Assembly: GCA_037383965.1 (NCBI GenBank) | Contig: JARROL010000001.1 | Span: 990 to 43,503 of the forward strand | Reading direction: 5' to 3' | Origin: Desulfobacterales bacterium | GTDB taxonomy: Bacteria; Desulfobacterota; Desulfobacteria; Desulfobacterales; SG8-13 | DNA length: 42,514 nucleotides | Shown here: piece by piece, positions 2,146 through 19,445 of the stretch | Position numbering within the stretch: the first letter of the stretch is position 1 | Layout of the letters: each line of letters starts with the position of its first letter | Made by a program: the position numbers and the translations under genes | The notes under the pieces: generated by a model | Told to the model about the DNA's origin: nothing | Seen by the model: only the letters and a program-made list of their open reading frames with translations | Databases searched by the model: none

Positions 2146-3135
2146 ATGACAAAAAGAAGCCTGAGAAATCAACTGGGATATGGTTCCACCTACCGCAAAG
2201 GCGATCGCACGGACGTCGATACCGCGGGGGAAATCAGCTCGGTGCTCGGTGGGCAGGTCTGGTTGATCAAACCCGACAAGGAAGCCAAGTCAGCCAACCC
2301 CTGTATATGGATGCAGGCCGGTGTGGTCAAGAACAAAGACTGTAACAACTATTACGACTGTACCAGCTGCAAATATGATCGCGGCATGCGTCTGCAGGTG
2401 GAGAAGGGCAAACAGGTCAGCTGGCAGGACGCCATGCGCATGCGGCCCGAGCTTGAAAGAGTGTGTCGACACAGCCTCACCCAGCGAATTCACAACCGCG
2501 CCTGCGCCTACGACTACAAATGTGCCACCTGCGATTTCGACCAATATTTTGAAGATGTATGGGCTACGAAAACCAACACCCTCCCGTACGAAATCCAGAG
2601 CGTCAAGGGATTCGAGGTTCCCATGGGGTATTATTTCCACAATGGCCATACCTGGGCCCGGATTGAAAGCGGCGGCTGCATTCGGGTCGGACTGGATGAC
2701 TTCGCCCTTAAACTGCTGGGTCGCGCCGATGCGCTCGATCTGCCGCTGATGGGCAAGGAACTCGACCACGGTAAGGTGGGCTGGGGACTGAAGCGCAAAG
2801 ACAACTTGGCCGATGTCCTTTCTCCCATCGACGGTGTCATCGTGGAGGTGAACGCGGATGTACGGGAAAATCCTGCTTTGACCAATCAAGAGCCTTACGG
2901 TGAGGGCTGGCTGTTCATGGTGCGGACACCGGATGTCAAGGCCACCATGAAAAAGCTCATGGTAGATGTGGACAGCCTGGACTGGATGAACACGGAAGTT
3001 CGGACACTGGAAAGCATGATCGAGCAAACCGCGGGTCCTTTGGCCGCCGACGGCGGTTATCTGCAGGAAGACATTTACGGCAACCTGCCAGATCTCGGCT
3101 GGAAGAAACTGACCCAAACGTTTCTGAGAACCTAA
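2146..3135 (+). CDS. Cys-rich protein with C-terminal glycine-cleavage-H (GcvH)-like barrel; paralog 1
   Basis: Strong SD (TAAGGAGAG). Two copies of C-x12-C-x5-C-x2-C: CIWMQAGVVKNKDCNNYYDCTSC and CRHSLTQRIHNRACAYDYKCATC. The GcvH-like core is YYFHNGHTWARIESGGCIRVGLDDFALKLLG...LSPIDGVIVEVN...NQEPYGEGWLFMV. Confidence 0.8.
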   Translation: MTKRSLRNQLGYGSTYRKGDRTDVDTAGEISSVLGGQVWLIKPDKEAKSANPCIWMQAGVVKNKDCNNYYDCTSCKYDRGMRLQVEKGKQVSWQDAMRMRPELERVCRHSLTQRIHNRACAYDYKCATCDFDQYFEDVWATKTNTLPYEIQSVKGFEVPMGYYFHNGHTWARIESGGCIRVGLDDFALKLLGRADALDLPLMGKELDHGKVGWGLKRKDNLADVLSPIDGVIVEVNADVRENPALTNQEPYGEGWLFMVRTPDVKATMKKLMVDVDSLDWMNTEVRTLESMIEQTAGPLAADGGYLQEDIYGNLPDLGWKKLTQTFLRT

Positions 3136-3245
3136 ACGTTTATTGGTGCGGCAAGCAAGGCGCATCGCGTCGGTAAAGGGCTTTGCACCGATCGGGTTAT
3201 TCGGCCTGCGCTTTGTTTGCCCCCTGCAATCAGAGGAAATTCAAA

Positions 3246-4172
3246 ATGAGAAAGCCACTAGCGGAGCATAAGGCGCGGGCGAGGCAGAATCCATGTATCT
3301 GGATGCAAGCCGGTGTGGTGCGCTCAAAACACTGCCAGCTCAACTATCAGTGCACGGCCTGCCGTTACGACAAAGCCCTGCGTCGGGTGGCCGAGGAGAA
3401 CCGAATGCTGCGGAAACGCGGAGTACCGCCGCATGGCCGCAGAGCGCGCATCGTGGCCTGGAAAGATCGACTCAGGGAATTACCGTCTTGGAAACAGCCC
3501 TGCCTGCACTCCATGAAGGGCCGCATCGAATTCAGGGCCTGCACGAATGACTACAGCTGCGTTGACTGCGAGTTCGATCAGTTCTTTTACGATCAATTCA
3601 CCGTGCATGCGGTGGTCAAACCGGTGGCGGAACTCAATATCGAAGGTTTCAAAATTCCCCAGGGCTATTACCTGCATCGCGGCCATGCCTGGGTGAAAAT
3701 CGAAGAAGAAAACACCGTCCGCATCGGCCTGGACGAGTTTGCAGCCCGCACGTTCGGCCCCTTTTCCCGGATTGATACGCCCTTGATGGGCAAAACGGTT
3801 CATCAGGACCAGCCCGAAATCCGCCTGATCCGTGGGGAAAACAGGGCCGACCTGCTTTCACCGGTCAGCGGCGTTATTACCGCCACCAACCCGCGGCTGC
3901 TGGAAGACGCGCAGGTTGAAAACCGTAACGCCTACGCGGAAGACTGGCTCATTCGGGTTCATGCCGACAACCTCCGTCGAGATTTGAAAAACCTGATGAT
4001 CAGCGATGAAACCGCGACCTTTTTGACCGAAGAAGTGGAACGCCTGTATCAGGTCATCGAGGCGGCGGCCGGTCCGCTAACGGTCGACGGCGGTCGTCTG
4101 GGAAGTGACATTTACGGTAAATTACCGCAACTGGACTGGCCCACCTTGACCCGGACTTTCCTGCGCTCCTGA
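3246..4172 (+). CDS. Cys-rich protein with C-terminal GcvH-like barrel; paralog 2
   Basis: Same architecture and same Cys spacing: CIWMQAGVVRSKHCQLNYQCTAC and CLHSMKGRIEFRACTNDYSCVDC. Core is YYLHRGHAWVKIEEENTVRIGLDEFAARTFG...LSPVSGVITATN...AYAEDWLIRV. The ATG at 3246 with a GAGGAA SD is preferred over the TTG at 3183 given in the track. Confidence 0.8.
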   Translation: MRKPLAEHKARARQNPCIWMQAGVVRSKHCQLNYQCTACRYDKALRRVAEENRMLRKRGVPPHGRRARIVAWKDRLRELPSWKQPCLHSMKGRIEFRACTNDYSCVDCEFDQFFYDQFTVHAVVKPVAELNIEGFKIPQGYYLHRGHAWVKIEEENTVRIGLDEFAARTFGPFSRIDTPLMGKTVHQDQPEIRLIRGENRADLLSPVSGVITATNPRLLEDAQVENRNAYAEDWLIRVHADNLRRDLKNLMISDETATFLTEEVERLYQVIEAAAGPLTVDGGRLGSDIYGKLPQLDWPTLTRTFLRS

Positions 4173-7906: not shown

Positions 7907-7989
7907 ACAGAGCATCTTCCTTTCGAATGGGGATTCACTAGCATAGAATCATCTACATTGCAATTCACCCGTTGATCATACACCGTTGG

Positions 7990-8590
7990 TTAGGCGCATC
8001 GAATACTGGTTTTTTCATCTGCACTGATGATGCAGTCATTGGGCCGAAGTCGTTTTCCGTTCCGTAGGCCCTGGTAGAGATCCAAAACACGGCTGGCCTT
8101 TTGCGCAAAATCTGGATCGCTAGGAAAGATCCAGCTGCGATATTGCTACGGATTTATGGCATCCTGGCTCATCCAGCGCCAAACCTTAGCGCCACTGATG
8201 GCGGCTACATTACCGTTTTTATCAGCTTAGCGGGCATTGTCAGCATTGCTGAGCCGAGAAAAGGGGAGGTTATTTTCGCCAGGCATCTGGCAAGCCCAAG
8301 CGTTAACCTCCATGACCACTTTAGGGAGAAAAACGACTCGGTCTCCCGCGTCTTGGACGATCCTGGAGACCGGCCAAGCGTTCTTCATAGAAGCGTTTGC
8401 GCCACTTGCTGATGATCTGTCGCGGCACCTCGAGGCGTTCACCGATTTGTTTGTTTTCCATGCCTTCGGCAGCGAGCAAAATGGCTTTGGCGCGAACGAC
8501 TTCAAAATATGGTGACGTATACTTCCGCGTGATTCGTAGCAAGGCCTTTTTCTCATGTGCCGCAAGCTCTATTAAAAAAGGGCTATTTCT
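7990..8590 (-). pseudogene. Decayed, 3'-truncated IS630-family transposase (N-terminal HTH region only)
   Basis: Minus-strand fragments lie in different frames with internal stops: ...IELAAHEKKALLRITRKYTSPYFEVVRAKAILLAAEGMENKQIGERLEVPRQIISKWRKRFYEERLAGLQDRPRRGRPSRFSP / FLPKVVMEVNAWACQMPGENNLPFSRLSNADNAR* / ISGAKVWRWMSQDAINP*QYRSWIFPSDPDFAQKASRVLDLYQG...ISADEKTSIRCA*. No DDE catalytic part follows. Confidence 0.75.
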
Positions 8591-8775
8591 TGGAATATAG
8601 CACCTCCTTTCGTTTCGGAGGACGATATCAAATGCATACTAATTTGTCGATAATACGACATCGTATTTATAAAAATGTGTACTGAGTTGTGCTTTGTGTC
8701 GAGGACATAGTTTGCTTTCGTCACCGGTAGGTCAAAATTGTCGTACAGCAGTCATTATGTTCAGATACAAAGGCC

Positions 8776-8807
8776 TTGACAGTACTTTCGACGATATGCC
8801 ATATAAC
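8776..8807 (+). promoter_or_regulatory. Candidate sigma70-type promoter of the hdrL-like operon
   Basis: TTGACA (8776-8781), an 18-20 nt spacer, then CATATAAC. The spacer length is suboptimal. Confidence 0.3.
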
Positions 8808-8817
8808 TCCCTTGGCA

Positions 8818-8882
8818 AATCGGCGCAAATTTGATTGGTCCGCTCTTGAGGCGAATCAGCGCAAATTTGATCGGTCCGCTCT
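8818..8882 (+). repeat. Two direct copies (period 36 bp) of a 29-nt element containing the palindrome CAAATTTG, in the hdrL-like leader
   Basis: AATCGGCGCAAATTTGATTGGTCCGCTCT (8818-8846) and AATCAGCGCAAATTTGATCGGTCCGCTCT (8854-8882), 27/29 identical. Flanked by inverted CTTGGC/GCCAAG. Confidence 0.8.
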
Positions 8883-8982
8883 CGCCAAGCATCTTTTATT
8901 GTTGAACTTTTATCCGCCGGCGTATCGCGTGTTTTTCGTCTCAGCGTGTAAGCTCGGCATCAAAAGGGTCAGGATAGATCTT

Positions 8983-11900
8983 ATGAGCAAGAACATAATT
9001 GTTGGATCAGCTTTGGTTGTCGGCGGCGGCATCGCCGGAATGCAGGCAGCTCTGGATTTGGCCGATTCGGGCTACCTGGTTCACCTTGTCGAAAAATCAT
9101 CCGCCATCGGCGGCGTGATGAGCGAACTGGACAAGACCTTTCCGACCAACGACTGTGCCATGTGAATTATCTCGCCCAAACTGGTCGAGGTCGGCCGGCA
9201 TCTCAACATCAATCTGATCACCTGTGCCGAAGTTGAAACGGTATCAGGAACACCCGGAAATTTTAAGGTCACGATCAACAAAGCCCCTCGGTTTGTGGAC
9301 CCGGCAAAGTGCACCTCATGCGGCGACTGCATCGAGGTTTGCCCGGTTTCCCTTCCCGATGAGTACGACCACGGTTTTTCCGCCCGCAAAGCCATCTACA
9401 AGAAATACGCCCAGGCGATCCCCGGCGCTTTTACCGTGCACAAGATGGACAAGGCTCCCTGCCGCCTGGCCTGTCCGGCAGGCTTAAACGTGCAGGGCTA
9501 TGTGCAGATGGTGGGGGCCGGGAAATATAAAGAGGCCCTTAAAATTATCATGGAGGATCTGCCCCTGCCCGGGGTTCTCGGACGCATCTGCCCCCACGGT
9601 TGTGAAGACGCCTGCCGCCGCTGCGAAGTCGACGATCCGGTGGCCATCCGTGACCTGAAGCGGCTGGCGGCCGACCAGGTGGACCCACGGGAAGTGGAGA
9701 TCAAGTGTCTGCCGCAGCGCAAGGAAACGGTGGCGATCATCGGCTCGGGCCCCGCGGGGCTCTCGGCGGCGTATCACCTGATCCGCAGGGGAATCAAGTC
9801 GACGATTTTCGAGGCCTTGCCCCAGGCGGGCGGCATGTTGCGGGTCGGCATTCCGGAACATCGCTTGCCCAGGGAGGTTCTCGACAGGGAAATCGAGCTG
9901 ATCACCAACCTGGGAGTCGACATTAAAGTCAACACGCCCTTCGGAGCGGATTTATCGCTGGATGATCTCTTCGAGCAGGGCTTCAAGGCGGTCTATATTG
10001 CCATCGGCGCCCATAAGGGCATCAATTTGGGCATACCGGGAGAAAAATCGAAGGGGGTTCGGCAGGGCGTCGATTTCCTCAGAGAAGTCAATCTGACCGG
10101 CAAGGCCGACGTCGGTAAAAATGTCGCCATCATCGGCGGCGGCAACGTGGCCATCGACGTGGCCCGCTGCGCGGTTCGCCTGGGCGCCGAGACGGTCAAT
10201 ATCATCTACCGGCGCTCCAGGGCCGAAATGCCCGCCTGGGAAGAGGAAATTCAGGCCGCCGAGGACGAGGGCGTCAACCTCACCTACCTGTCCGCGCCCC
10301 AGGAAGTATTGGTCGAAGACGGTCGGGTGGTAGGCCTGCGCTGCATCCGCATGAAGCTCAGCGACGTCGACTCTTCCGGTCGCAGGAGACCGACTCCCAT
10401 CCCCCACAGCGAGTACGAGATCGACATCGATCAGCTCATTCCGGCCATCGGTCAGAAACCGGATCTCTCCGCCCTGGCGGACGTGGCCGGTCTGGACACG
10501 ACGCGGTGGGGCACCATGGAGGTGGATGCCGTCACCTATGCTACCGGGCGGGAAGGGGTTTTTGCCGGTGGCGATGTCCAGACGGGTCCCTGGGTGGCCA
10601 TTGGCGCCATCGCCGCCGGAAAAGAGGCCGCCGAGTCGATCCAGCGTTATTTCGATAAGCGCGATATGGCTGCCGACCGGGAGCCGATCTACAAGGAAAA
10701 CCCCGTTTATCGGCCGATCCCGGCCGATGCCAACCGCACCGCGCGCGCCAAGATGCCGGCCCTGCCGGTGGTCGATCGCCGGGGTAACTTCAAAGAGGTC
10801 GAGCTGGGTTACGCGGAAGCCGCAGGGCAGTCGGAGGCCCATCGCTGTCTCAATTGCGGCTATTGCTGCGAATGCTACCAGTGCGTCGAAGCCTGCAAAC
10901 CGCAGGCGGTGACCCTGGAGACCCACGCCGAACAGGCGCAAAAGATCGAATTGGAAGTGGGGTCCGTGATCCTGGCGCCCGGGTTCAAACCTTTCGATCC
11001 GTCAAAGTTCGATGCATACAACTACAGCAAACACCCCAATGTGATCACCTCCATGGAAATGGAGCGCTTTTTGTCGGCTTCCGGCCCGACGGGCGGTCAC
11101 CTCGTACGGCCTTCCGACCACAAAGAGCCGCAGAAGATCGCCTGGTTCCAATGCATCGGGTCTCGTGACCTGAACCGCTGCGACAACTCCTACTGTTCTT
11201 CGGTGTGCTGCATGTACGCCATCAAGGAAGCCGTCATCGCCAAGGAGCACAGCGGGGGTAACCTCGACTGCGCCGTTTTCTTCATGGACATGCGCACGCC
11301 GGGCAAGGATTTCGAGCGATTTTACGACCGGGCCCGGGAAAACGATGATGTTCGGTTCATCCGCAGCCGGGTTCACACCATCGACCCGGTGGGGGACACT
11401 GGCGACCTCGAGCTGCGCTATGTTACCGAGAGCGGCGAGATGATAACCGAGACCTTCGACATGGTGGTGCTTTCGATCGGCATGGAGGTTGGGTCTGAAG
11501 CCGTGGCGTTAGCCCAGAGACTTGGATTCGAGCTGACCGAAGGGCGTTTCTGCCAGACCGAAACCTTTGAACCGGTGGCCACCTCCAAGCCGGGCATCTT
11601 CGCTTGCGGGGCGTTCCAGGGACCAAAGGACATTCCGCAGTCGGTCGTTGACGCGAGTGCGGCGGCCTCGGCCGCCGGCGAGATTTTGTCCGCGGCCCGG
11701 TTCACGGCTACCAAAACTCCGGAACTGATCCCGGAAACCAACGTTATCGGCGATCGACCGAGGATCGGGGTTTTCGTCTGCCGCTGCGGCATCAACATTG
11801 CCGGGGTTGTCGATGTTCCGGCAGTACGGGATTACGCTGCTACACTGCCCTTTGTGGATTACGTATCCGACAATCTCTACTCCTGCTCCCAGGATACCCA

Positions 11901-13437
11901 GGACACGATGGCGGCGATTATCAACAAGGAAAAACTCAACCGGGTGGTGGTGGCGGCCTGCACGCCCAAAACACACGAACCGCTGTTCCAGGAGACTCTG
12001 ATCAACGCCGGCCTCAACAAGTACCTTTTCGAGATGGCCAACATCCGCAACCAGGATTCGTGGGTTCACAAGAAAAATCCAGAACTGGCCACCCAGAAGG
12101 CCAAAGACCTAGTGCGCATGGCCGTGTCCAAGGTCGCGTTGATGGAGCCGCTCAAAGAGGCCGAACTTGATGTCACTCCAGTTGCCATGGTTTTAGGCGG
12201 CGGTGTGGCCGGTATGGCCGCAGCCCGCAGTCTGGCGAGGCAGGGCTATGAGACGCATTTGGTCGAAAAAAGCGATCGCCTCGGCGGCCAGGCGCTCAAC
12301 CTTTACCACACGGCCCAAGGGGAGGATGTCCAGCAGAAGCTTGCCGGTCTCATCGAGGATGTCAGCCGCGAGGAGAACTTCCATGCTCACCTGAACACCA
12401 CCTTGACCGGGGTTAGCGGCTTTGTGGGCAACTTCCAATCAACCCTGTCCCACAACGGCGACACCCAGACCTTAGATCACGGGGTGGCCGTTCTGGCCAC
12501 CGGGGCCAACCCACTCATACCCGAAGAGTACGAATACGGCAAGGATCCCCGCATCCTGACCAGCTTGGAGCTGGATCGCAAGTTTATCGAAAACGACCCG
12601 GCGCTGGAAAAGCTGAAGACTGCGGTTTTCATCCAGTGTGTCGGCTCTCGGGAACCCCAACGACCGTATTGCTCCAGGGTGTGCTGCACCCATTCGGTGG
12701 AAACCGCTCTGGAGCTCAAGAAACGCAATCCCGATATGCAGATCTTTATTTTGTATCGGGACATGCGGACCTACGGCGAGCGCGAGTACCTCTACAAAAA
12801 GGCCCGTGCGGCCGGGATCGTTTTTATCCGATACAAACTGGAGCAAAAACCCCAGGTCAGCGTGACCCAAGAAGTGATCCGTGTGGCGGTAATCGATCAT
12901 GTTTTGGGCTGGCCGGTGGAGATCCAGGCCGACCTTCTCACGCTGGCCTCGGCCGTTATACCGGCCGGCGATGAAAGTCTGGCTCAGTTCTTCAAGGTGC
13001 CGATGAACGAAGACGGCTTCTTCGTCGAGAAACACGCCAAGTTGGGGCCCTCCGAGTTCGCCACCGACGGTGTGTTCCTGTGCGGCATGGCCCACTATCC
13101 CAAGCCGATCGACGAGTCCGTGGCCCAAGGCCGGGCAGCGGCCTCCCGCGCCTTGACGTTGCTGGCCCAGAAAACGATTCACACCAGCGGTACCGTGGCC
13201 CTAGCAGATCCTTTCATGTGCAGTCGCTGCGGAGTGTGCGTCGCCATTTGCCCTTATTCGGCGCCGTTTTTTACCGAGGCCGGTCCAAATGCCGGCAAGG
13301 CCGAGGTCAATCCGATTCTGTGCAAGGGCTGCGGTTTGTGCGTGGCTTCCTGCCGCTCCGGGGCGATCCATTTAAAGGGCTTTGACAACAACCAGATTTT
13401 TGCTCAGCTCTTTTCCCTGAGCGAAGAGGTGGGATAG
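8983..13437 (+). CDS. hdrL: Large HdrA-like flavoprotein fusion (HdrA N-module + GltD/NfnB-like NAD(P)H module + two HdrA-type modules + ferredoxin domains); probable selenoprotein with UGA-Sec at 9163-9165 (HdrL-type)
   Basis: ORFs 8776-9165 and 9295-13437 are in the same frame, separated only by TGA at 9163-9165. Read-through gives ...[23 protein letters not shown]..., matching the HdrA motif TFPTNDCSMCILAPK. The ATG at 8983 ([27 protein letters not shown]) follows AGGA. The GltD-like part is [15 protein letters not shown]...[26 protein letters not shown] and [14 protein letters not shown]. There is a second Rossmann fold, [15 protein letters not shown]. Confidence 0.85.
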
Positions 13438-13474
13438 TGCCTATCCATAAATCCTTAAAACCTATGGAGTTATC

Positions 13475-13906
13475 ATGTCCGAGTGGGAACCGAAAATCGT
13501 CGCATTTTTGTGCAATTGGTGCAGCTATGGTGCAGCGGATCTGGCCGGCATCAGCCGGATGGAATATCCGCCCAACATTCGGGTCATCCGGATTCCCTGC
13601 ACAGGGCGGATGAGCCCCAAGTTCTTTCTCGCGGCGCTGCGCGAGGGCGCAGACGCTGTCTGGGTATCCGGGTGACATCCCGGCGAATGCCATTACCTGG
13701 AAGGTAATTACTACGCTCGCCGAAAGTTCGCCCTGTTTCAGAATCTGATGGAGCACATGGGAATCGAGCCCGGGCGGATTCAATTCTCATGGGTTTCCTC
13801 GGCCGAGTCGACCAAGTTCGTCGAGGTGGTCAACGATGTCACTGCGAAGGTCAAGGGGCTGGGGCCCAATCAAAACTTCATTAAAACCGAAGCCAAGGTG
13901 GCTTAG
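13475..13906 (+). CDS. mvhD: MvhD-like [2Fe-2S] hydrogenase delta-subunit-type electron-transfer protein (FlxD-like); probable selenoprotein with UGA-Sec at 13673-13675
   Basis: The ORF stops at TGA 13673-13675 but the frame stays open to TAG 13904-13906. Read-through gives [19 protein letters not shown]...IRIPCTGRM...[28 protein letters not shown]..., matching MvhD GCHPGDCHY. Confidence 0.85.
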
Positions 13907-13907
13907 T

Positions 13908-14852
13908 ATGTCATATATCGTCAAGATCAAAGAGATTTCCGAAAAGATCCTCAAAGACTGCACGGTGGAAATGGTCATCGGCTTTCGCAAGGGAACCGTT
14001 CCGTTGATGAACGAACCTTGCTTTGCGAGGACCCCCGATCAGGTGGATCAGTTTGTCTGGGATGGAAACTGCTGTATAAACCTTGCCAACTATCTGGCTG
14101 ATCGCAAAGAAAAGATCGGAATCGTGGCCAAGGGGTGTGATTCCCGCAACATCGTCACGCACATTCTCGAAAACAAAATCAAACGCGAGCAACTCTACAT
14201 TATCGGCGTGCCGTGCCTGGGAATGATTGACAAGCGACGAATTGCGCAGGATTTCGCCGACGAGATCATTGCGGTTGAAGAGGATAACGGCAAGGTTATC
14301 GTCAAAGGGCATGAGCGGGAAAAAGTCTACGACAAGTCTGCAGTGCTTCAGGAAAATTGTGCCATCTGTATTCATCGTAACCCGGTTATCCACGACGAAC
14401 TGGTGGCCGAACCGGTGGTGGAGCAGATCGAAGTGGACCGCTACGAGGACGTGCGTCGTGTCGAATCCATGGCGCCGGGTGAAAAATGGGCCCATTTCGA
14501 GGAGATGCTGGCGCCCTGCATCCGTTGCTATGCCTGTCGTAACGCCTGCCCACTGTGTTACTGTCCCACGTGCTTTGTGGATGAACACCGCCCCCAATGG
14601 GTCAACAAGGGCCAGGACCCGGTTGACGTGCGCACGTTTCATTTCCTGCGCGCTTACCACTGCGCCGGACGCTGCACCGACTGCGGCGCCTGCGAGAGAG
14701 TCTGCCCGGTCGGCATCCCGGTGCGTCAGTTCACCAAAAAGCTTGAAAAAGATGCCCGGGAACTTTTCGACTGGGAGGCCGGTTTGACGCTGGACAAGCG
14801 CCCGGTGCTCGATTTTTACAAACCTAACGATCCGGATGAGTTCATTAAATAA
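13908..14852 (+). CDS. Fe-S cluster protein (4Fe-4S dicluster motifs), FlxC-like subunit
   Basis: MSYIVKIKE... start at ATG 13908, 1 nt after the mvhD stop. The 24-codon N-terminal extension in the track overlaps mvhD. Motifs CIRCYACRNACPLCYCPTC and CTDCGACERVCPVGIP. Confidence 0.75.
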   Translation: MSYIVKIKEISEKILKDCTVEMVIGFRKGTVPLMNEPCFARTPDQVDQFVWDGNCCINLANYLADRKEKIGIVAKGCDSRNIVTHILENKIKREQLYIIGVPCLGMIDKRRIAQDFADEIIAVEEDNGKVIVKGHEREKVYDKSAVLQENCAICIHRNPVIHDELVAEPVVEQIEVDRYEDVRRVESMAPGEKWAHFEEMLAPCIRCYACRNACPLCYCPTCFVDEHRPQWVNKGQDPVDVRTFHFLRAYHCAGRCTDCGACERVCPVGIPVRQFTKKLEKDARELFDWEAGLTLDKRPVLDFYKPNDPDEFIK

Positions 14853-14861
14853 AGATAGACA

Positions 14862-14941
14862 TAGTGTTTGGTGTTTAGAGCTTAGTGTTTGGTAATCGTT
14901 GTCCGATACCAAACACGAAACACCAAATAGCAAACACCAAA
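14862..14941 (+). repeat. Intercistronic nested inverted-repeat element built from GTGTTTGGT / ACCAAACAC units
   Basis: The left arm has three copies of (A)GTGTTTGG(T). The right arm has three of CCAAACAC / AAACACCAAA. The inner perfect 10-bp hairpin is GTGTTTGGTA (14885-14894) / TACCAAACAC (14907-14916). The outer pair is TTTGGTGTTT / AAACACCAAA. Confidence 0.8.
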
Positions 14942-14957
14942 TTCATAGGTTCACGTA

Positions 14958-16025
14958 ATGAAGATTGTAAAAATTGACAAGAAGAGCTTGAGCACCGACC
15001 TCGACCGACTGCGTGAGACGTATCGACTTTTCGGGCCGGTCAAAGGGCCGCAGTATTACGATTTTCAGCTGCTGGGTCCTGGACAAACGCCCGACTTGGA
15101 CTTTCTCAATACGCGCATGTCGGCCAAGTCTCTGGTTTATCCGCAATCGGAGGTGATGCTCGATTACAGCCTGGACGAAAGTCAAGATGATCACCACATA
15201 ATGAAGGAAAGCGCACGGGACTATTCCCCCCGGGCTGTCATCGGGATCAGGCCCTGCGATGTCAAGGGATACCTCCTGGTGAAGCGCAATTTCGACACCC
15301 CCGACTTCAAGGACCCTTACTGGGTCCGCAACTTTGCGGCCACCACCCTCGTGGGCTATGGCTGTGATGAGCCTTGCAGCAGCTGTTTCTGCACCTCCGC
15401 CGGATCGGGACCTTTTCACGAGGAAGGCTTGGACGTGCTTCTGGTCGATGCCGGAGACAGCTTTTTAGCCAAGATCATCTCCGAGAAGGGGGAAAAGTTG
15501 GCCGCCGCCGCCGGCTGGGACAAACCGGCTGCAGACGGGACCGAACAGGAGATTGACGCTCGCCGGCAGGCAGCAGAAGCCAAGATGAACGCCGCGATGG
15601 AAACGGACCGGTTGGCCGCACAGGACACGCTCGATCTTTACGACGCGCCCTTCTGGGAAGATGTCTCTTTTTCCTGCATCAATTGCGGAACGTGTACTTA
15701 CGTCTGCCCGACCTGCTGGTGTTTCGACATTCAGGACGAGGTCCGCGGGAAAAAAGGAAAACGACTGCGCATCTGGGATAGCTGCATGTATCCGCTGTTC
15801 ACCCTCCACGGCTCCGGCCACAATCCTCGGGGGACGAAACTGCAGCGGGTCCGCCAGCGGTTCATGCACAAGCTCAAATATTATGTGGACAAGTATGAAG
15901 ACGGGATACAGTGCTCCGGTTGCGGTCGTTGCGTGCGCCTGTGTCCGGTGAACATCGACATTCGTCGGGTTGCCCGACTGATGAACAGCCACGGCCAGGA
16001 CGCTGTGGCCTGCGAGGTGAAGTGA
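14958..16025 (+). CDS. Fe-S protein of the sulfhydrogenase-beta (HydB) / AsrA type, FlxB-like subunit
   Basis: CINCGTCTYVCPTCWCFD...RIWDSCMYPLFTLHGSGHNPR...CSGCGRCVRLCPVNIDI. Confidence 0.75.
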   Translation: MKIVKIDKKSLSTDLDRLRETYRLFGPVKGPQYYDFQLLGPGQTPDLDFLNTRMSAKSLVYPQSEVMLDYSLDESQDDHHIMKESARDYSPRAVIGIRPCDVKGYLLVKRNFDTPDFKDPYWVRNFAATTLVGYGCDEPCSSCFCTSAGSGPFHEEGLDVLLVDAGDSFLAKIISEKGEKLAAAAGWDKPAADGTEQEIDARRQAAEAKMNAAMETDRLAAQDTLDLYDAPFWEDVSFSCINCGTCTYVCPTCWCFDIQDEVRGKKGKRLRIWDSCMYPLFTLHGSGHNPRGTKLQRVRQRFMHKLKYYVDKYEDGIQCSGCGRCVRLCPVNIDIRRVARLMNSHGQDAVACEVK

Positions 16026-16921
16026 TGACGACGCCGCATGTTGAATCCGTCATTCCCGGTACCGGAGGGATGACGGTGACGAATCCTTATCTCCCGTATC
16101 CGGTACGAATCGAGGAGATAACCACCGAAACCGAAGACCGTAACCTGAAGACGTTCAAACTGGTGTTCTTGAATACGGCCGACGAAAAAAAGTTTGCCTA
16201 TAAGGCCGGCCAGTTCGCCGAGCTCTCGATAACCGGCAAAGGTGAAATACCGATCGGGATTGCCTCTTCGCCGACGGAAAAAGGCTTTCTCCTTTTTACC
16301 GTCAACCGGGTCGGGCTGGTTTCCACCGCCCTGCACAACATGCGGGTGGGCGACATCATGGGTGTTCGCGGTCCCATGGGCAATTGGTACCCTTGGGAGG
16401 CAATCGAGGGCAAAAGTGTTGTTATCATCGGGGGCGGTTTTGCTTTCACGACCCTGCGGTCGTCCATCGTTTACATGCTCGATCCGAATAACCGGCCAAA
16501 ATTCAAAGATATACATGTCATATATGGTGCCCGGACACCGGGCATGCTTCTCTACCGCGACGAACTGGCGGCCTGGGAGAAACGCGACGACATCTACATG
16601 CACATCACTGTGGACGCCACCGACGATCCGACCTGGAAGTACAATACCGGTTTCGTGCCGACGATCACCGACCAAAAAGCGCCGCCGGCTGACGGGGAAA
16701 CCTATGCCATCGTGTGCGGTCCTCCGATCATGATCAAGTTTACACAGCCGGTACTCGAGAACCTCGGTTACTCGTACGACCACATCATCATGTCTCTGGA
16801 AAATCGGATGAAATGCGGTATCGGTATCTGCGGCCATTGCAATATCGGCAAGGAATACGTGTGCAAGGACGGGCCGGTCTTCACGCTGGAACAGTTGAGC
16901 CGTATGCCGAAAGAGTATTGA
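16025..16921 (+). CDS. FAD/NAD(P)-binding oxidoreductase with C-terminal [2Fe-2S] site (HydG / AsrB / PyrK family), FlxA-like subunit
   Basis: The ATG at 16025 overlaps the upstream stop (TGATG). The track start at 15911 would overlap the upstream gene by 115 nt. Motifs YKAGQFAELS...GEIPIGIASSP, VVIIGGGFAF and the C-terminal CGIGICGHCNIGKEYVCKDGPVF. Confidence 0.8.
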   Translation: MTTPHVESVIPGTGGMTVTNPYLPYPVRIEEITTETEDRNLKTFKLVFLNTADEKKFAYKAGQFAELSITGKGEIPIGIASSPTEKGFLLFTVNRVGLVSTALHNMRVGDIMGVRGPMGNWYPWEAIEGKSVVIIGGGFAFTTLRSSIVYMLDPNNRPKFKDIHVIYGARTPGMLLYRDELAAWEKRDDIYMHITVDATDDPTWKYNTGFVPTITDQKAPPADGETYAIVCGPPIMIKFTQPVLENLGYSYDHIIMSLENRMKCGIGICGHCNIGKEYVCKDGPVFTLEQLSRMPKEY

Positions 16922-16939
16922 CCGGCCTGTTTTTTAATG

Positions 16940-16968
16940 TTGACATCACAGATTCAATACGTTAATAA
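16940..16968 (+). promoter_or_regulatory. Sigma70-type promoter for dsrC
   Basis: TTGACA (16940-16945), 17-nt spacer, TAATAA (16963-16968). It lies about 75 nt upstream of the dsrC ATG. Confidence 0.5.
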
Positions 16969-17043
16969 ACCAACTTTAATCATCGCAATAGGCGGACTGG
17001 CGTAAGCCACTGGAATAATTTATTTTTTAAAGGAGGGTATTGT

Positions 17044-17361
17044 ATGCCAACAGTTGAATTCATGGGAAAAGCATTCACCGTCGACGAAGACGGGTTCATC
17101 GATTCCTACGAAAACTGGAGCCAGGAATGGGTACAGTGGGTCAAGAAAGAAGAGGGCATCGACGAACTCAACGAGGAGCACCAAAAAGTCATCAAGGTCC
17201 TGCGTGAATACTATGAGAAAAACGGAATTGCCCCGATGGTTCGGGTTCTTTCCAAGGTTACCGGTTTCAAACTGAAGCACATTTACGAGTTGTTTCCCTC
17301 CGGCCCGGGCAAGGGAGCCTGCAAGATGGCCGGTCTTCCCAAGCCGACCGGTTGTGTCTGA
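17044..17361 (+). CDS. dsrC: DsrC (TusE/DsrC/DsvC family) with both C-terminal redox cysteines
   Basis: 105 aa with a strong SD (AAAGGAGGG). The C-terminus ...GPGKGACKMAGLPKPTGCV has the Cys-x10-Cys arm with the penultimate Cys that is diagnostic of true DsrC. Confidence 0.9.
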   Translation: MPTVEFMGKAFTVDEDGFIDSYENWSQEWVQWVKKEEGIDELNEEHQKVIKVLREYYEKNGIAPMVRVLSKVTGFKLKHIYELFPSGPGKGACKMAGLPKPTGCV

Positions 17362-17400
17362 TCCGATCCACCGAAACGACACGATGACTTCTATGAAGAC

Positions 17401-17435
17401 AAGGCCCTGCGCGCCCCGCAGGGCCTTTACTATTT
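17401..17435 (+). terminator. Rho-independent terminator after dsrC
   Basis: AAGGCCCTGCG-cgccc-CGCAGGGCCTT (11-bp GC-rich stem) followed by TACTATTT. Confidence 0.7.
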
Positions 17436-17447
17436 AGGGGAGGCGCC

Positions 17448-17843
17448 ATGGTCGTTCTCAACATCAAAACGACGTCGAGGACCGAGTTCGTCGACATCAC
17501 CGCGAAGGTTCAGGAGGCTATCGGCTCCACCGGGTTGACCGAAGGCCTCTGCATGCTCTACGTGCCGCACACCACTGCTGCGATTACCATCAACGAGAGC
17601 GCCGATCCCAGCGTTAAATCCGATATTCTGATGGTCCTCAACGAGGTGGTTCCCTGGGAGGCTCAATACCGTCATGGGGAAGGAAACTCTCCGGCCCATG
17701 TCAAATCCACACTGGTCGGAGCCTCGGAGCTGATTGCGGTTGAAAAGGGGCGACTGGTTTTGGGAACATGGCAGGGTATCTTTTTCTGTGAATTCGATGG
17801 TCCGCGAACCCGAAGGGTGCAGGTCAAGGTCATTCCGGTCTGA
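17448..17843 (+). CDS. YjbQ/UPF0047 family protein (secondary thiamine-phosphate synthase-like)
   Basis: 131 aa. ...LCMLYVPHTTAAITINESADPSV..D......VP......HGEGNSPAHVKSTLVGAS...V..G.L.LGTWQGIFFCEFDGPR.R is typical of the family. Confidence 0.8.
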   Translation: MVVLNIKTTSRTEFVDITAKVQEAIGSTGLTEGLCMLYVPHTTAAITINESADPSVKSDILMVLNEVVPWEAQYRHGEGNSPAHVKSTLVGASELIAVEKGRLVLGTWQGIFFCEFDGPRTRRVQVKVIPV

Positions 17844-18063: not shown

Positions 18064-18522
18064 ATGTCGTTTTTTATAGATGAAACCGATCGTCGCATTC
18101 TGAACCGAATTCAAACCCGTTTTCCGATCGCGCCGCGTCCGTACTCGGTGATTGCAGAAGACCTCGGCCTGACCGAAAAAGAGGTGATGTCTCGTATCAA
18201 GCGATTGAAGGAAAAGGACGTTATCCGCAGGATCGGCGGCAACTTCGTACCCGAAAAAGTTGGTTTTGTCAGCACGCTCTGTGCGGCCCGGGTGCCGGAG
18301 ACCGCCATCGAATACTTTGCAGAGGTCGTCAACAGTTACTCCGGGGTCACGCACAACTACGTGCGCGACAATGTCTACAACATCTGGTTCACCTTCATCG
18401 CGCCGTCGATGGCGGAAATCGAGGAAAATCTCGGGCAGATCGAGAAGCAAACCGGTGTTTCACCGATTCTCAACATGCCCGCGACCCGGGTGTTCAAGAT
18501 CCGCGCAAAGTTCGAGCTCTAA
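18064..18522 (+). CDS. AsnC/Lrp-like protein of the siroheme decarboxylase (AhbA/AhbB, NirD/L/G/H) type
   Basis: DETDRRILNRIQTRFPIAPRPYSVIAEDLGLTEKEVMSRIKRLKEKDVIRRIGGNF...VTHNYVRDNVYNIWFTF resembles alternative-heme-pathway decarboxylase subunits. Confidence 0.6.
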   Translation: MSFFIDETDRRILNRIQTRFPIAPRPYSVIAEDLGLTEKEVMSRIKRLKEKDVIRRIGGNFVPEKVGFVSTLCAARVPETAIEYFAEVVNSYSGVTHNYVRDNVYNIWFTFIAPSMAEIEENLGQIEKQTGVSPILNMPATRVFKIRAKFEL

Positions 18523-18635: not shown

Positions 18636-19445
18636 ATGCGTGACATCCGCATAGCCCTTGTGGTTGTTAATTGTCCGTTAGCGGCTATTGACGAAAATCT
18701 GGTGAGCATGGAGCGGCTGGCCGGCGAGGCGGCGCGCGAGGGGGCCAAGATTGTCTGTTTCCCCGAGCTGAACCTTACCGGTTACTGCGTCACGCAGGAA
18801 TTGGCGAAAACGGCCCTACCGGTGCCGGGACCTGCAACCGAGGAGATGGTTCGCATCGCCCGGTCGACCTCCCTGACGATCCTGGCCGGATTGGCAGAAA
18901 AGGACACGGCGGGACGAATGTTTGCCACCCATCTGGTGGTCACTCCCCAAGGCGTTTCCGGTTTTTACCGTAAAATTCATATCGCGCCGCCGGAAAGTCC
19001 CCTTTTTTCGCCCGGTGGGCAGGTTTCACTCCATTCTTTTCCCGGACTCACCTTCGGTATTCAACTCTGCTACGACAGCCACTTCCCGGAACTTTCCACC
19101 TGCATGGCCCTTAAGGGTTGCGATCTGATTTTTATGCCCCATGCCTCCCCGCGGGGAACCCCCGAGAATAAAATGGCCTCGTGGATGCGCCATCTCAGCG
19201 CAAGGGCCTTCGACAACGGTGTCTTTATCGCGGCCTGCAACCAGGTCGGAGACAATCGACACGGTCTGAACTTTCCGGGTGTTGCTACGCTTATCGGGCC
19301 ATCGGGTGAGGTATTGCAGCATATCGGTAGCGACAAAGAGGGCCTGCTGTTGGCCGATCTGGAAGCAGCCCGGTTGAGCGACGTACGCCGTCATCGGATG
19401 CGCTATTTCCTACCCAACCGCAGGCCCGATATCTACAAGTTATAG
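18636..19445 (+). CDS. Carbon-nitrogen hydrolase (nitrilase superfamily)
   Basis: E-K-C triad contexts: CFPELNLTGY, FYRKIHI, GIQLCYDSHFPE. Confidence 0.85.
   Translation: MRDIRIALVVVNCPLAAIDENLVSMERLAGEAAREGAKIVCFPELNLTGYCVTQELAKTALPVPGPATEEMVRIARSTSLTILAGLAEKDTAGRMFATHLVVTPQGVSGFYRKIHIAPPESPLFSPGGQVSLHSFPGLTFGIQLCYDSHFPELSTCMALKGCDLIFMPHASPRGTPENKMASWMRHLSARAFDNGVFIAACNQVGDNRHGLNFPGVATLIGPSGEVLQHIGSDKEGLLLADLEAARLSDVRRHRMRYFLPNRRPDIYKL

Follow-up and report, generated by a model that had tools for sequence, protein, structure and literature searches.

An Hdr/Flx-type selenoprotein operon beside dsrC in a Desulfobacterales bacterium: a possible bifurcating link between pyridine nucleotides and ferredoxin

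Where would the electrons of a Flx-Hdr-type complex go when its genes adjoin dsrC and include neither HdrB nor HdrC? The question is raised by a 42.5-kb stretch of DNA (the window) from an uncultured Desulfobacterales species, in which hdrL, mvhD (flxD), flxC, flxB, flxA and dsrC follow one another on the plus strand from 8983 to 17361. This gene order, on which the original prediction was built, is real: it was recovered from the coordinates and the Pfam/NCBIfam matches of the open reading frame translations. The locus was compared with those of 80 species-level relatives, retrieved with flanks of up to +/-10 kb (some are short contigs), 62 of which were testable for dsrC adjacency. The mvhD-flxCBA block was invariant across all 80.

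The first five genes form a single, closely spaced operon, with gaps of 37 nt (hdrL-mvhD), 1 nt (mvhD-flxC) and 105 nt (flxC-flxB) and with the flxA start overlapping the flxB stop by 1 nt. A TTGACA hexamer about 200 nt 5' of hdrL (8776..8781, +) is a candidate operon promoter, and TTGACA(AG) occurs at a comparable place 5' of hdrL or hdrA-N in the relatives inspected; no sigma54-type promoter was found 5' of hdrL. The operon product is predicted to be a soluble multi-flavin, iron-sulfur, selenocysteine-bearing complex of the Flx-Hdr kind.

The largest subunit, HdrL (8983..13437, +; 1484 codons), was delimited by translation, Pfam/NCBIfam and PDB matches and motif positions (HdrA2 NF040770, 5.9e-274; PRK12771, 3.2e-163). 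It consists of an HdrA core with an inserted GltD/NfnB-like NAD(P)H module, followed by a second, sHdrA-like flavin/FeS unit. The insert (aa ~151-636; 9433..10890, +) combines Fer4_20, which holds 2x[4Fe-4S], with Pyr_redox_2, has an FAD site (GSGPAG, aa 254) and an NAD(P)H site (GGGNVA, aa 385), and matches NfnB (5JCA/4YLF), StnC (8OH5) and GltD (2VDC). It splits HdrA's own inserted ferredoxin domain between that domain's two cluster motifs. The second HdrA-like unit (aa ~1069-1484; 12187..13437, +) carries the FAD motif GGGVAG, the cluster motif CVGSRE...YCSRVCC and a C-terminal 2x[4Fe-4S] ferredoxin domain (Fer4_7, aa 1413-1461), and it matches the sHdrA-like protein 6TJR at 1.1e-36 over aa 1069-1393.

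HdrL and MvhD each contain an in-frame TGA. Codon 61 of hdrL (9163..9165, +) is read as selenocysteine in the motif FPTNDCAM[U]I; among 56 loci of related species it is TGA in 45 and Cys in 3, and a hairpin with an AGGU loop begins 18 nt 3' of it. With the residue offset taken from the alignment, Sec61 is equivalent to Cys197 of Methanothermobacter wolfeii HdrA, which we take to be an Fe-S ligand and not a redox-active thiol. The mvhD gene (13475..13906, +; 143 codons; FlpD, 1.6e-53; VhuD model) has its TGA at 13673-13675, in VWVSG[U]HPGECHY, again with a hairpin 3' of it. This codon is TGA in 68 of 77 related loci and Cys in the other 9, and the selenocysteine falls within the cluster-binding GCHPGxCH motif.

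The three remaining operon genes encode iron-sulfur proteins. FlxC (13908..14852, +; 314 aa; Fer4_8), whose start agrees with the gene calls, has more than 7000 homologues, and its C-terminal part is homologous to FdhB of Fdh-MvhD-Hdr complexes (7BKB_E, 8RVU_E, 9T1S_M; 1e-18 to 4e-20). FlxB (14958..16025, +; 355 aa; Fer4_22, 4.4e-33; 9NEZ_B, 4.7e-38) is sulfhydrogenase beta/AsrA-like, matching models of ShyB, HydB and AsrA. FlxA (16025..16921, +; 298 aa) is an FAD- and NAD(P)H-binding [2Fe-2S] protein of HydG/AsrB-like composition (FAD_binding_6, NAD_binding_1 and DHODB_Fe-S_bind), homologous to the sulfhydrogenase gamma subunit and to NfnA (9NEZ_C, 3.4e-52; 4YLF_A, 4.6e-12). The two NAD(P)H entry points proposed originally, the GltD-like insert and FlxA, are thus confirmed at the level of domains.

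The HdrA gene of these loci takes three interchangeable forms: with the GltD/NfnB insert, split and accompanied by nuoE-nuoF-nuoG', or plain. In relatives that are ~92% identical, segment 9277-10946 is swapped for nuoE-nuoF-nuoG' in a clean cassette exchange whose boundary falls on one and the same HdrA residue (~291 by the numbering of 5ODC), past which the sister genomes are ~92-93% identical in nucleotide sequence over more than 16 kb. The shared exchange point and the downstream identity indicate that GltD and NuoEFG' are functionally equivalent NAD(P)H modules.

A CCG subunit of the HdrB/HdrD/DsrK type was sought in the window in three ways. Domain PF02754 was not found in its sizeable ORFs, the pattern CX(n)CCGX(m)CXXC had no match in any stop-to-stop ORF of at least 60 aa, and tblastn with Pfam-verified HdrB and HdrD from relatives returned nothing; the claim of a module without HdrB/HdrC in cis is therefore borne out. 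The DsrK/TmcB-like protein that had been suggested beside a cytochrome b at the left edge is absent, as is any cytochrome b or CCG protein there; that edge encodes a PD40/WD40-repeat beta-propeller protein (377-1636, -) and two proteins of 329 aa, each Cys-rich at the N-terminus and with a GcvH domain (2146-3135 and 3183-4172). Within the retrieved flanks of up to +/-10 kb, a CCG protein accompanies just 10 of the 80 loci, and these include neither any of the 16 NuoEF-type loci nor any HdrL-type locus from Desulfobacterales. Where one is present, it is either HdrB with a cytochrome b::HdrC fusion 5' of plain HdrA (L026, L031, L035, L064; with dsrC as well in L026 and L064) or a Sec-containing HdrD right after flxA (L078, L082, L085, L086, L089, L090; together with HdrL in L085 and L090). 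An HTH-HdrD also adjoins paralogous long-HdrA/MvhD clusters. That relatives and paralogues using a CCG partner encode it in cis speaks for stable CCG subunits being encoded together with the complex whenever it needs them. Syntrophobacteraceae and SAR324 relatives combine a GltD-insert HdrL with HdrD at the place held here by dsrC, so the GltD module is no general substitute for the CCG branch.

The neighbouring dsrC (17044..17361, +; 105 aa; PF04358, 6.5e-36; full-length matches 2XSJ_C, 4e-49, and 2V4J_C, 3e-48) lies directly downstream of flxA, as predicted, and encodes a bona fide DsrC with both cysteines of the C-terminal arm (ACKMAGLPKPTGCV). Of 51 neighbouring dsrC genes, 49 retain this motif at the C-terminus (48 exactly, 1 with one substitution); the remaining 2 are truncated by contig ends. 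Since dsrC directly follows flxA in 50 of the 62 testable loci (81%), the original prediction does not fail through a lack of conserved adjacency. Its description of a module ending at dsrC holds for that adjacency but not for the transcription unit. A conserved sigma70-type promoter and a Shine-Dalgarno sequence occupy the flxA-dsrC gap in 51 of 51 loci; here the candidate promoter (16940..16968, +) consists of TTGACA at 16940-16945, a 17-nt spacer and a -10-like TAATAA at 16963-16968. The hexamer is exact in all 51 loci and stands 97-118 nt 5' of the dsrC ATG in 49. An intrinsic terminator (17401..17427, +; 11-bp stem, 8 GC pairs) follows dsrC, with a fold of -26.9 kcal/mol (z = -3.7) that none of 200 shuffles equalled in stability. 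Having a separate candidate promoter and terminator, dsrC is therefore a conserved neighbour and not the operon end. The conserved block runs on beyond it into functionally unrelated genes (yjbQ, ahbA and a CN-hydrolase gene), and some genomes hold second cluster copies without dsrC (L028/L032, L055/L057).

Among known systems, FlxABCD-HdrABC of D. vulgaris Hildenborough shares FlxA (FAD/NAD(P)H/[2Fe-2S]), the Fe-S proteins FlxB and FlxC, FlxD (MvhD) and the HdrA flavoprotein; flavin-based bifurcation has been proposed for it and it is functionally linked to DsrC, as PMC5539420 and PMC10504309 cite Ramos et al. 2015 and Ferreira et al. 2023. By comparison, the window lacks HdrB/HdrC, reverses the gene order (hdrA first), places dsrC adjacent, and has a ~1480-aa HdrL with its GltD/NfnB insert and second HdrA-like unit as well as two selenocysteines. 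Methanogen MvhADG-HdrABC and FdhAB-MvhD-HdrABC (5ODC, 7BKB, 8RVU) share the HdrA core (E ~1e-172), the electron-entry adaptor MvhD, the FdhB-type C-terminus seen in FlxC and Sec or Cys at the Cys197 position, whereas hydrogenase, formate dehydrogenase and HdrBC are missing here, as is the N-terminal domain of HdrA (the alignment begins at HdrA residue ~144). The insert is homologous to NfnB and StnC of NfnAB/StnABC (5JCA, 4YLF, 8OH5) over ~480 residues (E 1e-80 to 4e-111), and both kinds of module that replace one another at loci of the window's type, NfnB-like and NuoE/F-like, are combined in Stn. Unlike in NfnAB/StnABC, the NfnB-like module is here embedded in HdrA, and MvhD, FlxB and FlxC stand between it and the NfnA-like FlxA. 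Clusters of S. fumaroxidans (Sfum_0819-0824) and of Syntrophobacteraceae, Desulfacinum and SAR324 (L078-L090) share HdrL or a long HdrA, MvhD and Fe-S proteins but have a CCG subunit in cis (HdrBC or Sec-containing HdrD), and in L078-L090 dsrC does not occupy the post-flxA position. The HdrABC/HdrL complex of S. fumaroxidans was detected under sulfate-reducing conditions only and was suggested to reduce DsrC (PMC5947623).

By homology, FlxA (FAD, [2Fe-2S]) would exchange hydride with NAD(P)H, and its electrons would pass through FlxB and FlxC, the latter with a C-terminus that resembles a subunit of Fdh-MvhD-Hdr complexes, to the [2Fe-2S] of MvhD and on to the bifurcating FAD in HdrA's core. 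From this flavin, one branch would enter HdrA's inserted ferredoxin domain, hard-wired to a second pyridine-nucleotide flavoprotein (NfnB/GltD-type here, NuoE/NuoF/NuoG' at the identical splice point in sister species); the other would lead through the second HdrA-like unit to the terminal 2x[4Fe-4S] domain, a likely ferredoxin site. To reach DsrC, if they do so at all, electrons would need a CCG protein whose gene lies elsewhere, for instance DsrK or an orphan HdrD. The reading tentatively preferred, at somewhat under an even chance, is that the complex may be a reversible bifurcating/confurcating link between two pyridine-nucleotide pools and ferredoxin, akin to Nfn/Stn, with no thiol/disulfide chemistry of its own and in need of a CCG protein in trans to reach DsrC. 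It is supported by the homology of the insert to bifurcating NfnB and StnC and of FlxA to NfnA, by the absence of a CCG gene in cis here and in most relatives, by the cis location of that gene where such a partner is used, by the exchange of GltD for NuoEFG' at one HdrA residue, and by the autonomy of dsrC. Against it count the position of dsrC and the family-wide DsrC link, including direct binding of DsrC to FlxABCD-HdrABC in D. vulgaris, for which PMC10504309 cites Ferreira et al. 2023, the co-occurrence of a GltD-insert HdrL with HdrD in Syntrophobacteraceae and SAR324 relatives, and the S. fumaroxidans HdrL, whose gene adjoins hdrABC and which was detected solely with sulfate (PMC5947623). 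In addition, Desulfobacteraceae already possess NfnAB (PMC5109826, PMC11887813), so another transhydrogenase would be partly redundant. The caution first voiced over the electron-flow logic of this variant is still fair.

It is rather unlikely that the complex acts as a true NAD(P)H:DsrC oxidoreductase of the Flx-Hdr type, in which HdrA would bifurcate to ferredoxin and oxidised DsrC and a CCG catalytic subunit (a soluble HdrD/HdrBC, or DsrK/TmcB) would dock in trans. In favour of this, DsrMKJOP occurs in all sulfate reducers (PMC5109826), and several orphan hdrD genes, one of them with selenocysteine, are present in Db. autotrophicum (PMC2702500). The order flxA-dsrC also speaks for it, as do the CCG proteins that accompany this flxDCBA block in 10 of the relatives (L026, L064, L085 and L090 included) and the interaction of DsrC with Flx-Hdr shown by experiment in D. 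vulgaris (PMC10504309, citing Ferreira et al. 2023). However, a stable complex usually has the genes for its subunits together, as is the case for CCG in the relatives and paralogues that use it, and 70 of the 80 loci have no CCG gene in the flanks retrieved. Because dsrC is an independent unit inside a longer conserved block, its adjacency is by itself weak evidence.

That block of unrelated genes 3' of flxA and the cluster copies without dsrC would also suit a complex that serves a different acceptor of high potential or a different partner enzyme, perhaps one from the Wood-Ljungdahl or APS-reduction pathway; the position of dsrC would then be inherited order without functional meaning. HdrA/MvhD modules do pair variously (FdhA in L092; POR and Fdh in the literature; MetF), but no candidate partner gene is conserved beside the operon and dsrC is the sole conserved redox-related neighbour, and this explanation is improbable. 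Very improbable indeed is a new kind of DsrC reductase acting directly and CCG-free on the DsrC disulfide or trisulfide, at the second HdrA-like unit (which resembles sHdrA of sulfur oxidisers, 6TJR) or at the two conserved selenocysteines or Cys sites, as it would fit the conserved dsrC adjacency and the missing CCG gene but is without precedent, Sec61 aligns with a presumed Fe-S ligand, the MvhD selenocysteine sits in a cluster-binding motif, and the double HdrA also occurs in relatives possessing HdrB/HdrD.

The closest described counterpart is hdrL1-mvhD-'dsrA,dsrB'-dsrC of Db. autotrophicum HRM2, through which Strittmatter et al. 2009 proposed that electrons pass from NADH to sulfite (PMC2702500). 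It likewise has a Sec-containing HdrL (an HdrA/glutamate-synthase fusion), then a Sec-containing mvhD, 'sulfite reductase subunit' genes and dsrC. The intervening genes were named dsrA/dsrB in 2009, whereas those of the window encode AsrA/HydB-like and AsrB/HydG-like Flx proteins, to which the HRM2 pair probably corresponds. Two Desulfobacterium MAGs (L087, L088) have HdrL(GltD)-MvhD-FlxC-FlxB-FlxA-DsrC, and their FlxC is 62-64% identical to that of the window. The cluster is therefore not new but already described and widespread in sulfate-reducing Desulfobacterales, in which its product, on the reading preferred here, would join two pyridine-nucleotide pools to ferredoxin.

The genes hdrL (8983-13437), mvhD/flxD (13475-13906), flxC-like (13908-14852), flxB-like (14958-16025), flxA-like (16025-16921) and dsrC (17044-17361) follow one another on the + strand of the window. 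This gene order was delimited by a six-frame ORF listing and translation, and the assignments of all six genes were confirmed by Pfam, NCBIfam and PDB sequence searches, in agreement with the original prediction. The operon from hdrL to flxA is tight, with gaps of 37, 1 and 105 nt followed by a 1-nt overlap. Both hdrL and mvhD contain a TGA (at 9163-9165, hdrL codon 61, and 13673-13675, mvhD codon 67), each gene thereby appearing as two ORFs in one frame, and automatic gene callers split hdrL into 60 + 1380 aa and mvhD into 66 + 52 aa. When related species were aligned, HdrL codon 61 was TGA in 45 loci and Cys in 3, and MvhD codon 67 was TGA in 68 loci and Cys in 9. Because TGA and Cys alternate at the same alignment positions, the two TGAs are interpreted as selenocysteine codons, and hdrL and mvhD are both predicted selenoprotein genes. 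Hairpins with G-rich apical loops begin 18 nt (hdrL) and 8 nt (mvhD) past the TGA, with energies like those of shuffled sequences (z = 0.27 and -1.27).

HdrL is recognized as an HdrA flavoprotein, in the form of a fusion, by HdrA/HdrA2 models and by 5ODC_A (8.5e-172); its residue numbers were taken from PDB alignments and motif positions. HdrL aa 6-154 and residues 144-290 of M. wolfeii HdrA (5ODC) give a gap-free alignment, in which Sec61 falls at Cys197 of the M. wolfeii protein. The methanogen-type N-terminal HdrA domain is missing. The first ferredoxin motif of HdrL (aa 110-121) presumably sits in the inserted ferredoxin domain of HdrA. HdrL aa ~151-636 constitute a complete GltD/NfnB-type module, comprising a 2x[4Fe-4S] Fer4_20 domain, an FAD site and an NAD(P)H site, whose best structural relatives are NfnB (5JCA, 4YLF) and StnC (8OH5). 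Homology to HdrA picks up again at residue 292 in HdrL aa 627-850, and aa 1069-1393 form a second HdrA-like unit that resembles the minimal sHdrA-like flavoprotein 6TJR and ends in a 2x[4Fe-4S] domain.

The remaining proteins of the operon were assigned in the same searches. MvhD/FlxD is matched over its full length by PF02662 FlpD (1.6e-53) and is an MvhD-like [2Fe-2S] protein of the FlxD kind. FlxA has FAD_binding_6, NAD_binding_1 and DHODB_Fe-S_bind domains and matches HydG/ShyC/AsrB models and 9NEZ_C (3.4e-52), giving it the FAD/NAD(P)H-binding and [2Fe-2S] sites of a PyrK/AsrB/HydG-like protein; it also matches NfnA (4YLF_A, 4.6e-12). FlxB contains Fer4_22 and matches ShyB/HydB/AsrA models and 9NEZ_B (4.7e-38), while FlxC joins a 4Fe-4S dicluster domain to an FdhB-like C-terminus; domain models and PDB matches place these two as the Fe-S proteins akin to sulfhydrogenase beta/AsrA. 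FlxB and FlxA are nearest to sulfhydrogenase I of P. furiosus (9NEZ), FlxB to its beta subunit and FlxA to its gamma subunit. The C-terminal 100 residues of FlxC match FdhB of Fdh-MvhD-Hdr supercomplexes (7BKB, 8RVU), which fits a role for FlxC as electron donor to MvhD, and we infer that FlxC would be the subunit passing electrons to MvhD.

The module shares its FlxA, FlxB, FlxC, FlxD and HdrA features with FlxABCD-HdrABC, but it lacks both HdrB (the catalytic disulfide reductase with CCG domains) and HdrC, which are defining subunits. It is therefore to be filed as an HdrL/Flx variant and not as a canonical Flx-Hdr. HdrL was defined by Strittmatter et al. 2009 (PMC2702500) as a large fusion of HdrA with the glutamate synthase small subunit, with an NAD(P)H site and with mvhD next to it, and the fusion, the site and the following mvhD are all found in the window; the novelty claimed for the module was to that extent overstated. 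The HdrL1 and HdrL3 proteins contain Sec (PMC2702500). As the gene order in the Desulfobacterium MAGs (related loci L087 and L088) is HdrL-MvhD-FlxCBA-DsrC, the ‘DsrA/DsrB’ of Strittmatter et al. 2009 are most probably AsrA/AsrB-like Flx proteins. The NfnB-like part of NfnAB/Stn (2x[4Fe-4S], FAD and an NADPH site) has its counterpart in HdrL aa 151-635 (5JCA_L, 4YLF_B, 8OH5_C, 9N5U_A; Fer4_20 and Pyr_redox_2), and NfnA is a homologue of FlxA, a likeness known here from sequence. Beyond the literature consulted, the present analysis adds how widely, and within what limits, dsrC adjoins the cluster, that the dsrC promoter is conserved, and that NAD(P)H-module cassettes are exchanged between sister species.

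A CCG protein (an HdrB/HdrD/DsrK-type disulfide-reducing subunit) had been predicted to be missing, and this was borne out across the 42.5-kb window: no PF02754 domain was found in a Pfam scan of all sizeable ORFs, no CX(n)CCGX(m)CXXC signature in ORFs of at least 60 aa, and no match by tblastn with Pfam-verified HdrB/HdrD from relatives. No HdrC-like gene was found in the window, tblastn with cytochrome b::HdrC and HdrD returning just weak Fer4 matches inside flxB. A DsrK/TmcB-like protein with a cytochrome b had been proposed at the left edge; window-wide searches by Pfam, NCBIfam, CCG regex and tblastn found neither. What lies at the left edge instead is a gene for a PD40/WD40 repeat protein and, in tandem, two + strand genes (2146-3135 and 3183-4172) for 329-aa proteins whose N-terminal half is rich in Cys (NPCIWMQAGVV...C..C motifs) and whose C-terminal domain is GcvH-like. 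Minus-strand genes for an M54-type peptidase, a sigma54 response regulator and a PAS histidine kinase come next. When aligned by hand with E. coli GcvH, the tandem proteins did not conserve the lipoyl-lysine position. In Desulfosarcina widdelii (L055) and UBA2771 (L063), too, HdrL-type clusters have the GcvH-like pair, the response regulator and the PAS kinase upstream of them. GcvH-like proteins are partners of sulfur-oxidising sHdr systems. The right edge holds a gene unrelated to the operon, for a 631-aa Prismane/CO-dehydrogenase family protein (40556-42451, - strand; PF03063, 1.3e-170).

The intergenic region between the histidine kinase gene and hdrL (7916-8983) is unusually long, at ~1.07 kb. 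It contains a degenerate 112-aa ORF on the - strand (8227-8565), which is without a Pfam match, and a 24-nt direct repeat (GCGCAAATTTGATYGGTCCGCTCT) with copies at 8823-8846 and 8859-8882, 36 bp apart. One exact copy of the repeat is present in each of the close relatives L001-L004, with a degenerate second copy in L004, and a regulator may bind at this repeat. A sigma54 promoter for hdrL had been suggested by the divergent PAS histidine kinase and sigma54 response regulator. This was rejected, as no convincing GG-N10-GC was found upstream of hdrL in the window or its relatives; the sole good sigma54-like match (TGGCAT-N5-TTGC, 2067-2081) precedes the GcvH-like gene.

A FlxC alignment scan of one genome per GTDB species yielded 569 loci, and the window proteins were mapped onto the best 80 (62-97% identical) for synteny. 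These 80 loci cover Desulfobacterales, Desulfosarcinaceae, Desulfatibacillum, Desulfosudis, Desulfococcus, Desulfobacterium, Syntrophobacteraceae, Desulfacinum and a SAR324 bin. The mvhD-flxC-flxB-flxA order was invariant in the best 80 of 569 loci wherever the contig allowed. The dsrC adjacency was likewise conserved in this survey: of the 62 loci whose downstream sequence was long enough, 50 have dsrC starting 119-435 nt past the flxA stop codon. The 12 loci without dsrC after flxA comprise six from Desulfobacterales, in which unrelated genes come next, and six from Syntrophobacteraceae/Desulfacinum/SAR324, in which HdrD does. Some genomes have the cluster twice (for instance L028 with L032, and L055 with L057, both loci of a pair coming from the same genome). 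An exact-sequence look-up of DsrC recovered the gene neighbourhood of the window on at least 21 metagenome contigs, among them L010, which shares 99.5% identity with the window across 19.5 kb. In most relatives dsrC is followed by yjbQ, ahbA and a CN-hydrolase gene, located in the window at 17448-17843, 18064-18522 and 18636-19445. The yjbQ gene remains linked to the flx cluster even with hdrD replacing dsrC (L078, L086, L089, L090).

The DsrC protein is 105 aa long with the C-terminal end ACKMAGLPKPTGCV, and it matches the DsrC chains of the DsrAB-DsrC crystal structures 2V4J, 2XSJ and 3OR1 over its full length. Its length and the two cysteines of its C-terminal arm (CysB-X10-CysA-V) are those of a bona fide DsrC, not of TusE/RspA. 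An exact TTGACA is present in the flxA-dsrC gap of 51/51 loci (97-118 nt upstream of the ATG in 49 of the 51), against about 0.04 per locus expected by chance. An A/T-rich hexamer resembling a -10 element comes after the TTGACA at sigma70 spacing, and the consensus AAAGGAGG lies close to the dsrC ATG in these gaps. In the window the + strand elements are TTGACA at 16940-16945 and TAATAA at 16963-16968, with a strong terminator past dsrC (17401-17427, + strand; z = -3.7). The dsrC gene clearly has autonomous, conserved predicted expression signals. An intrinsic terminator between flxA and dsrC was sought and rejected: the window has only a weak hairpin and T-run (z = -0.6), and a strict scan was positive in 4/51 loci. 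As flxA is followed by this weak hairpin and T-run alone, there may be read-through from flxA into dsrC. The prediction that the module ends at dsrC was correct as to adjacency, but with a separate promoter and terminator for dsrC it overstated operon membership, which should not be assumed from the position beside flxA. In the dsrC 5' UTR, the sequence UGGC-GUAA-GCCA (16998-17009) gives a short GC stem and a GNRA-like loop; its form in the relatives inspected is GGC-N4-6-GCC. The stem is conserved between promoter and Shine-Dalgarno in the relatives aligned, and it may be an mRNA-stabilising or regulatory 5' hairpin.

CCG proteins are encoded in cis in 10 of the best 80 of 569 loci, within flanks of up to +/-10 kb. 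Four of these loci (L026, L031, L035, L064) have HdrB and a NarI-like cytochrome b::HdrC fusion upstream of a plain HdrA, and are the only ones with a pair of the kind proposed for the left edge of the window; six (L078, L082, L085, L086, L089, L090) have HdrD downstream of flxA. The HdrD of the Syntrophobacteraceae/Desulfacinum/SAR324 loci consists of an HdrC-like 2x[4Fe-4S] domain and a CCG domain, both Pfam-verified, and occupies the exact position of dsrC (13127-14389 in L078 and 12921-14234 in L085). The HdrD-like genes after flxA have one in-frame stop codon (...LPE*GH...), a probable selenocysteine. Paralogous long-HdrA/MvhD clusters elsewhere in Desulfobacterota have HTH-HdrD genes in cis. 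Mutual exclusion of GltD/NuoEF modules and CCG subunits was considered and rejected, as L085, L086, L089 and L090 join a GltD-containing HdrL to HdrD.

The gene upstream of mvhD is HdrL with the GltD insert in 15 loci and a plain ~1020-aa double HdrA in 17. In a further 16 loci, all with dsrC next, the HdrA gene is broken up: a short N-terminal part of ~125 aa, which contains the Sec, comes first, then nuoE, nuoF and a NuoG N-terminal domain fused to the HdrA core. By blastn, the NuoEF-type loci L005-L007 and L011 are 92-93% identical to the window at the nucleotide level from 10946 on, for >16 kb, and NuoEF-type relatives are as close to the window as HdrL-type relatives are. In these four loci the GltD segment of the window (9277-10946) is swapped for 3.4 kb of nuoE-nuoF-nuoG' (514-3887 in L005). 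On these alignments, the difference is a clean cassette exchange at one HdrA point, about residue 291 of 5ODC, and the GltD and NuoEFG' modules therefore appear to have the same role.

In the mechanism that we propose, electrons from NAD(P)H would enter at FlxA and pass through FlxB/FlxC and MvhD to the HdrA FAD. From there, one branch would run via the inserted ferredoxin domain to a second pyridine-nucleotide site, in the GltD (or NuoEFG') flavoprotein, and the other via the second HdrA-like unit to ferredoxin. On this basis the complex would link NADH, NADPH and ferredoxin reversibly by bifurcation, in the manner of Nfn/Stn, a reading that is preferred tentatively. The exchange of NAD(P)H modules at one fixed HdrA site provides natural ‘domain-swap’ variants among sister species in which the first branch could be tested.

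The main rival, put forward in the original prediction, is that the complex reduces DsrC via a CCG protein supplied in trans. The conserved dsrC adjacency, the HdrL + HdrD loci of Syntrophobacteraceae and SAR324, proteome data from S. fumaroxidans (PMC5947623) and a DsrC/Flx-Hdr interaction in D. vulgaris, cited in PMC10504309, are consistent with this possibility; however, relatives that use CCG subunits co-encode them as a rule, and we consider it somewhat unlikely. As the operon is without a CCG subunit across the order, purification of the complex should ask whether one joins in trans. Service to some acceptor other than those of the preferred bifurcating link or DsrC is distinctly improbable, and direct, CCG-free reduction of DsrC by the complex hardly credible.

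It is also highly unlikely that the Desulfobacterales HdrL(or NuoEF-HdrA)-MvhD-FlxCBA complex is a three-flavin bifurcating machine that depends on selenium, works independently of CCG proteins and ties the DsrC redox cycle directly to ferredoxin and two pyridine-nucleotide pools. If it were, sulfate reducers that oxidise their substrates completely would have a new soluble route for cytoplasmic electrons into sulfite reduction, with HdrA as the scaffold and NAD(P)H modules of a plug-and-play kind. The operon stands beside dsrC in at least 50 species-level genomes, and it is a conserved candidate path by which NADH, NADPH and reduced ferredoxin from complete substrate oxidation may reach DsrC/DsrAB in abundant marine Desulfobacterales.
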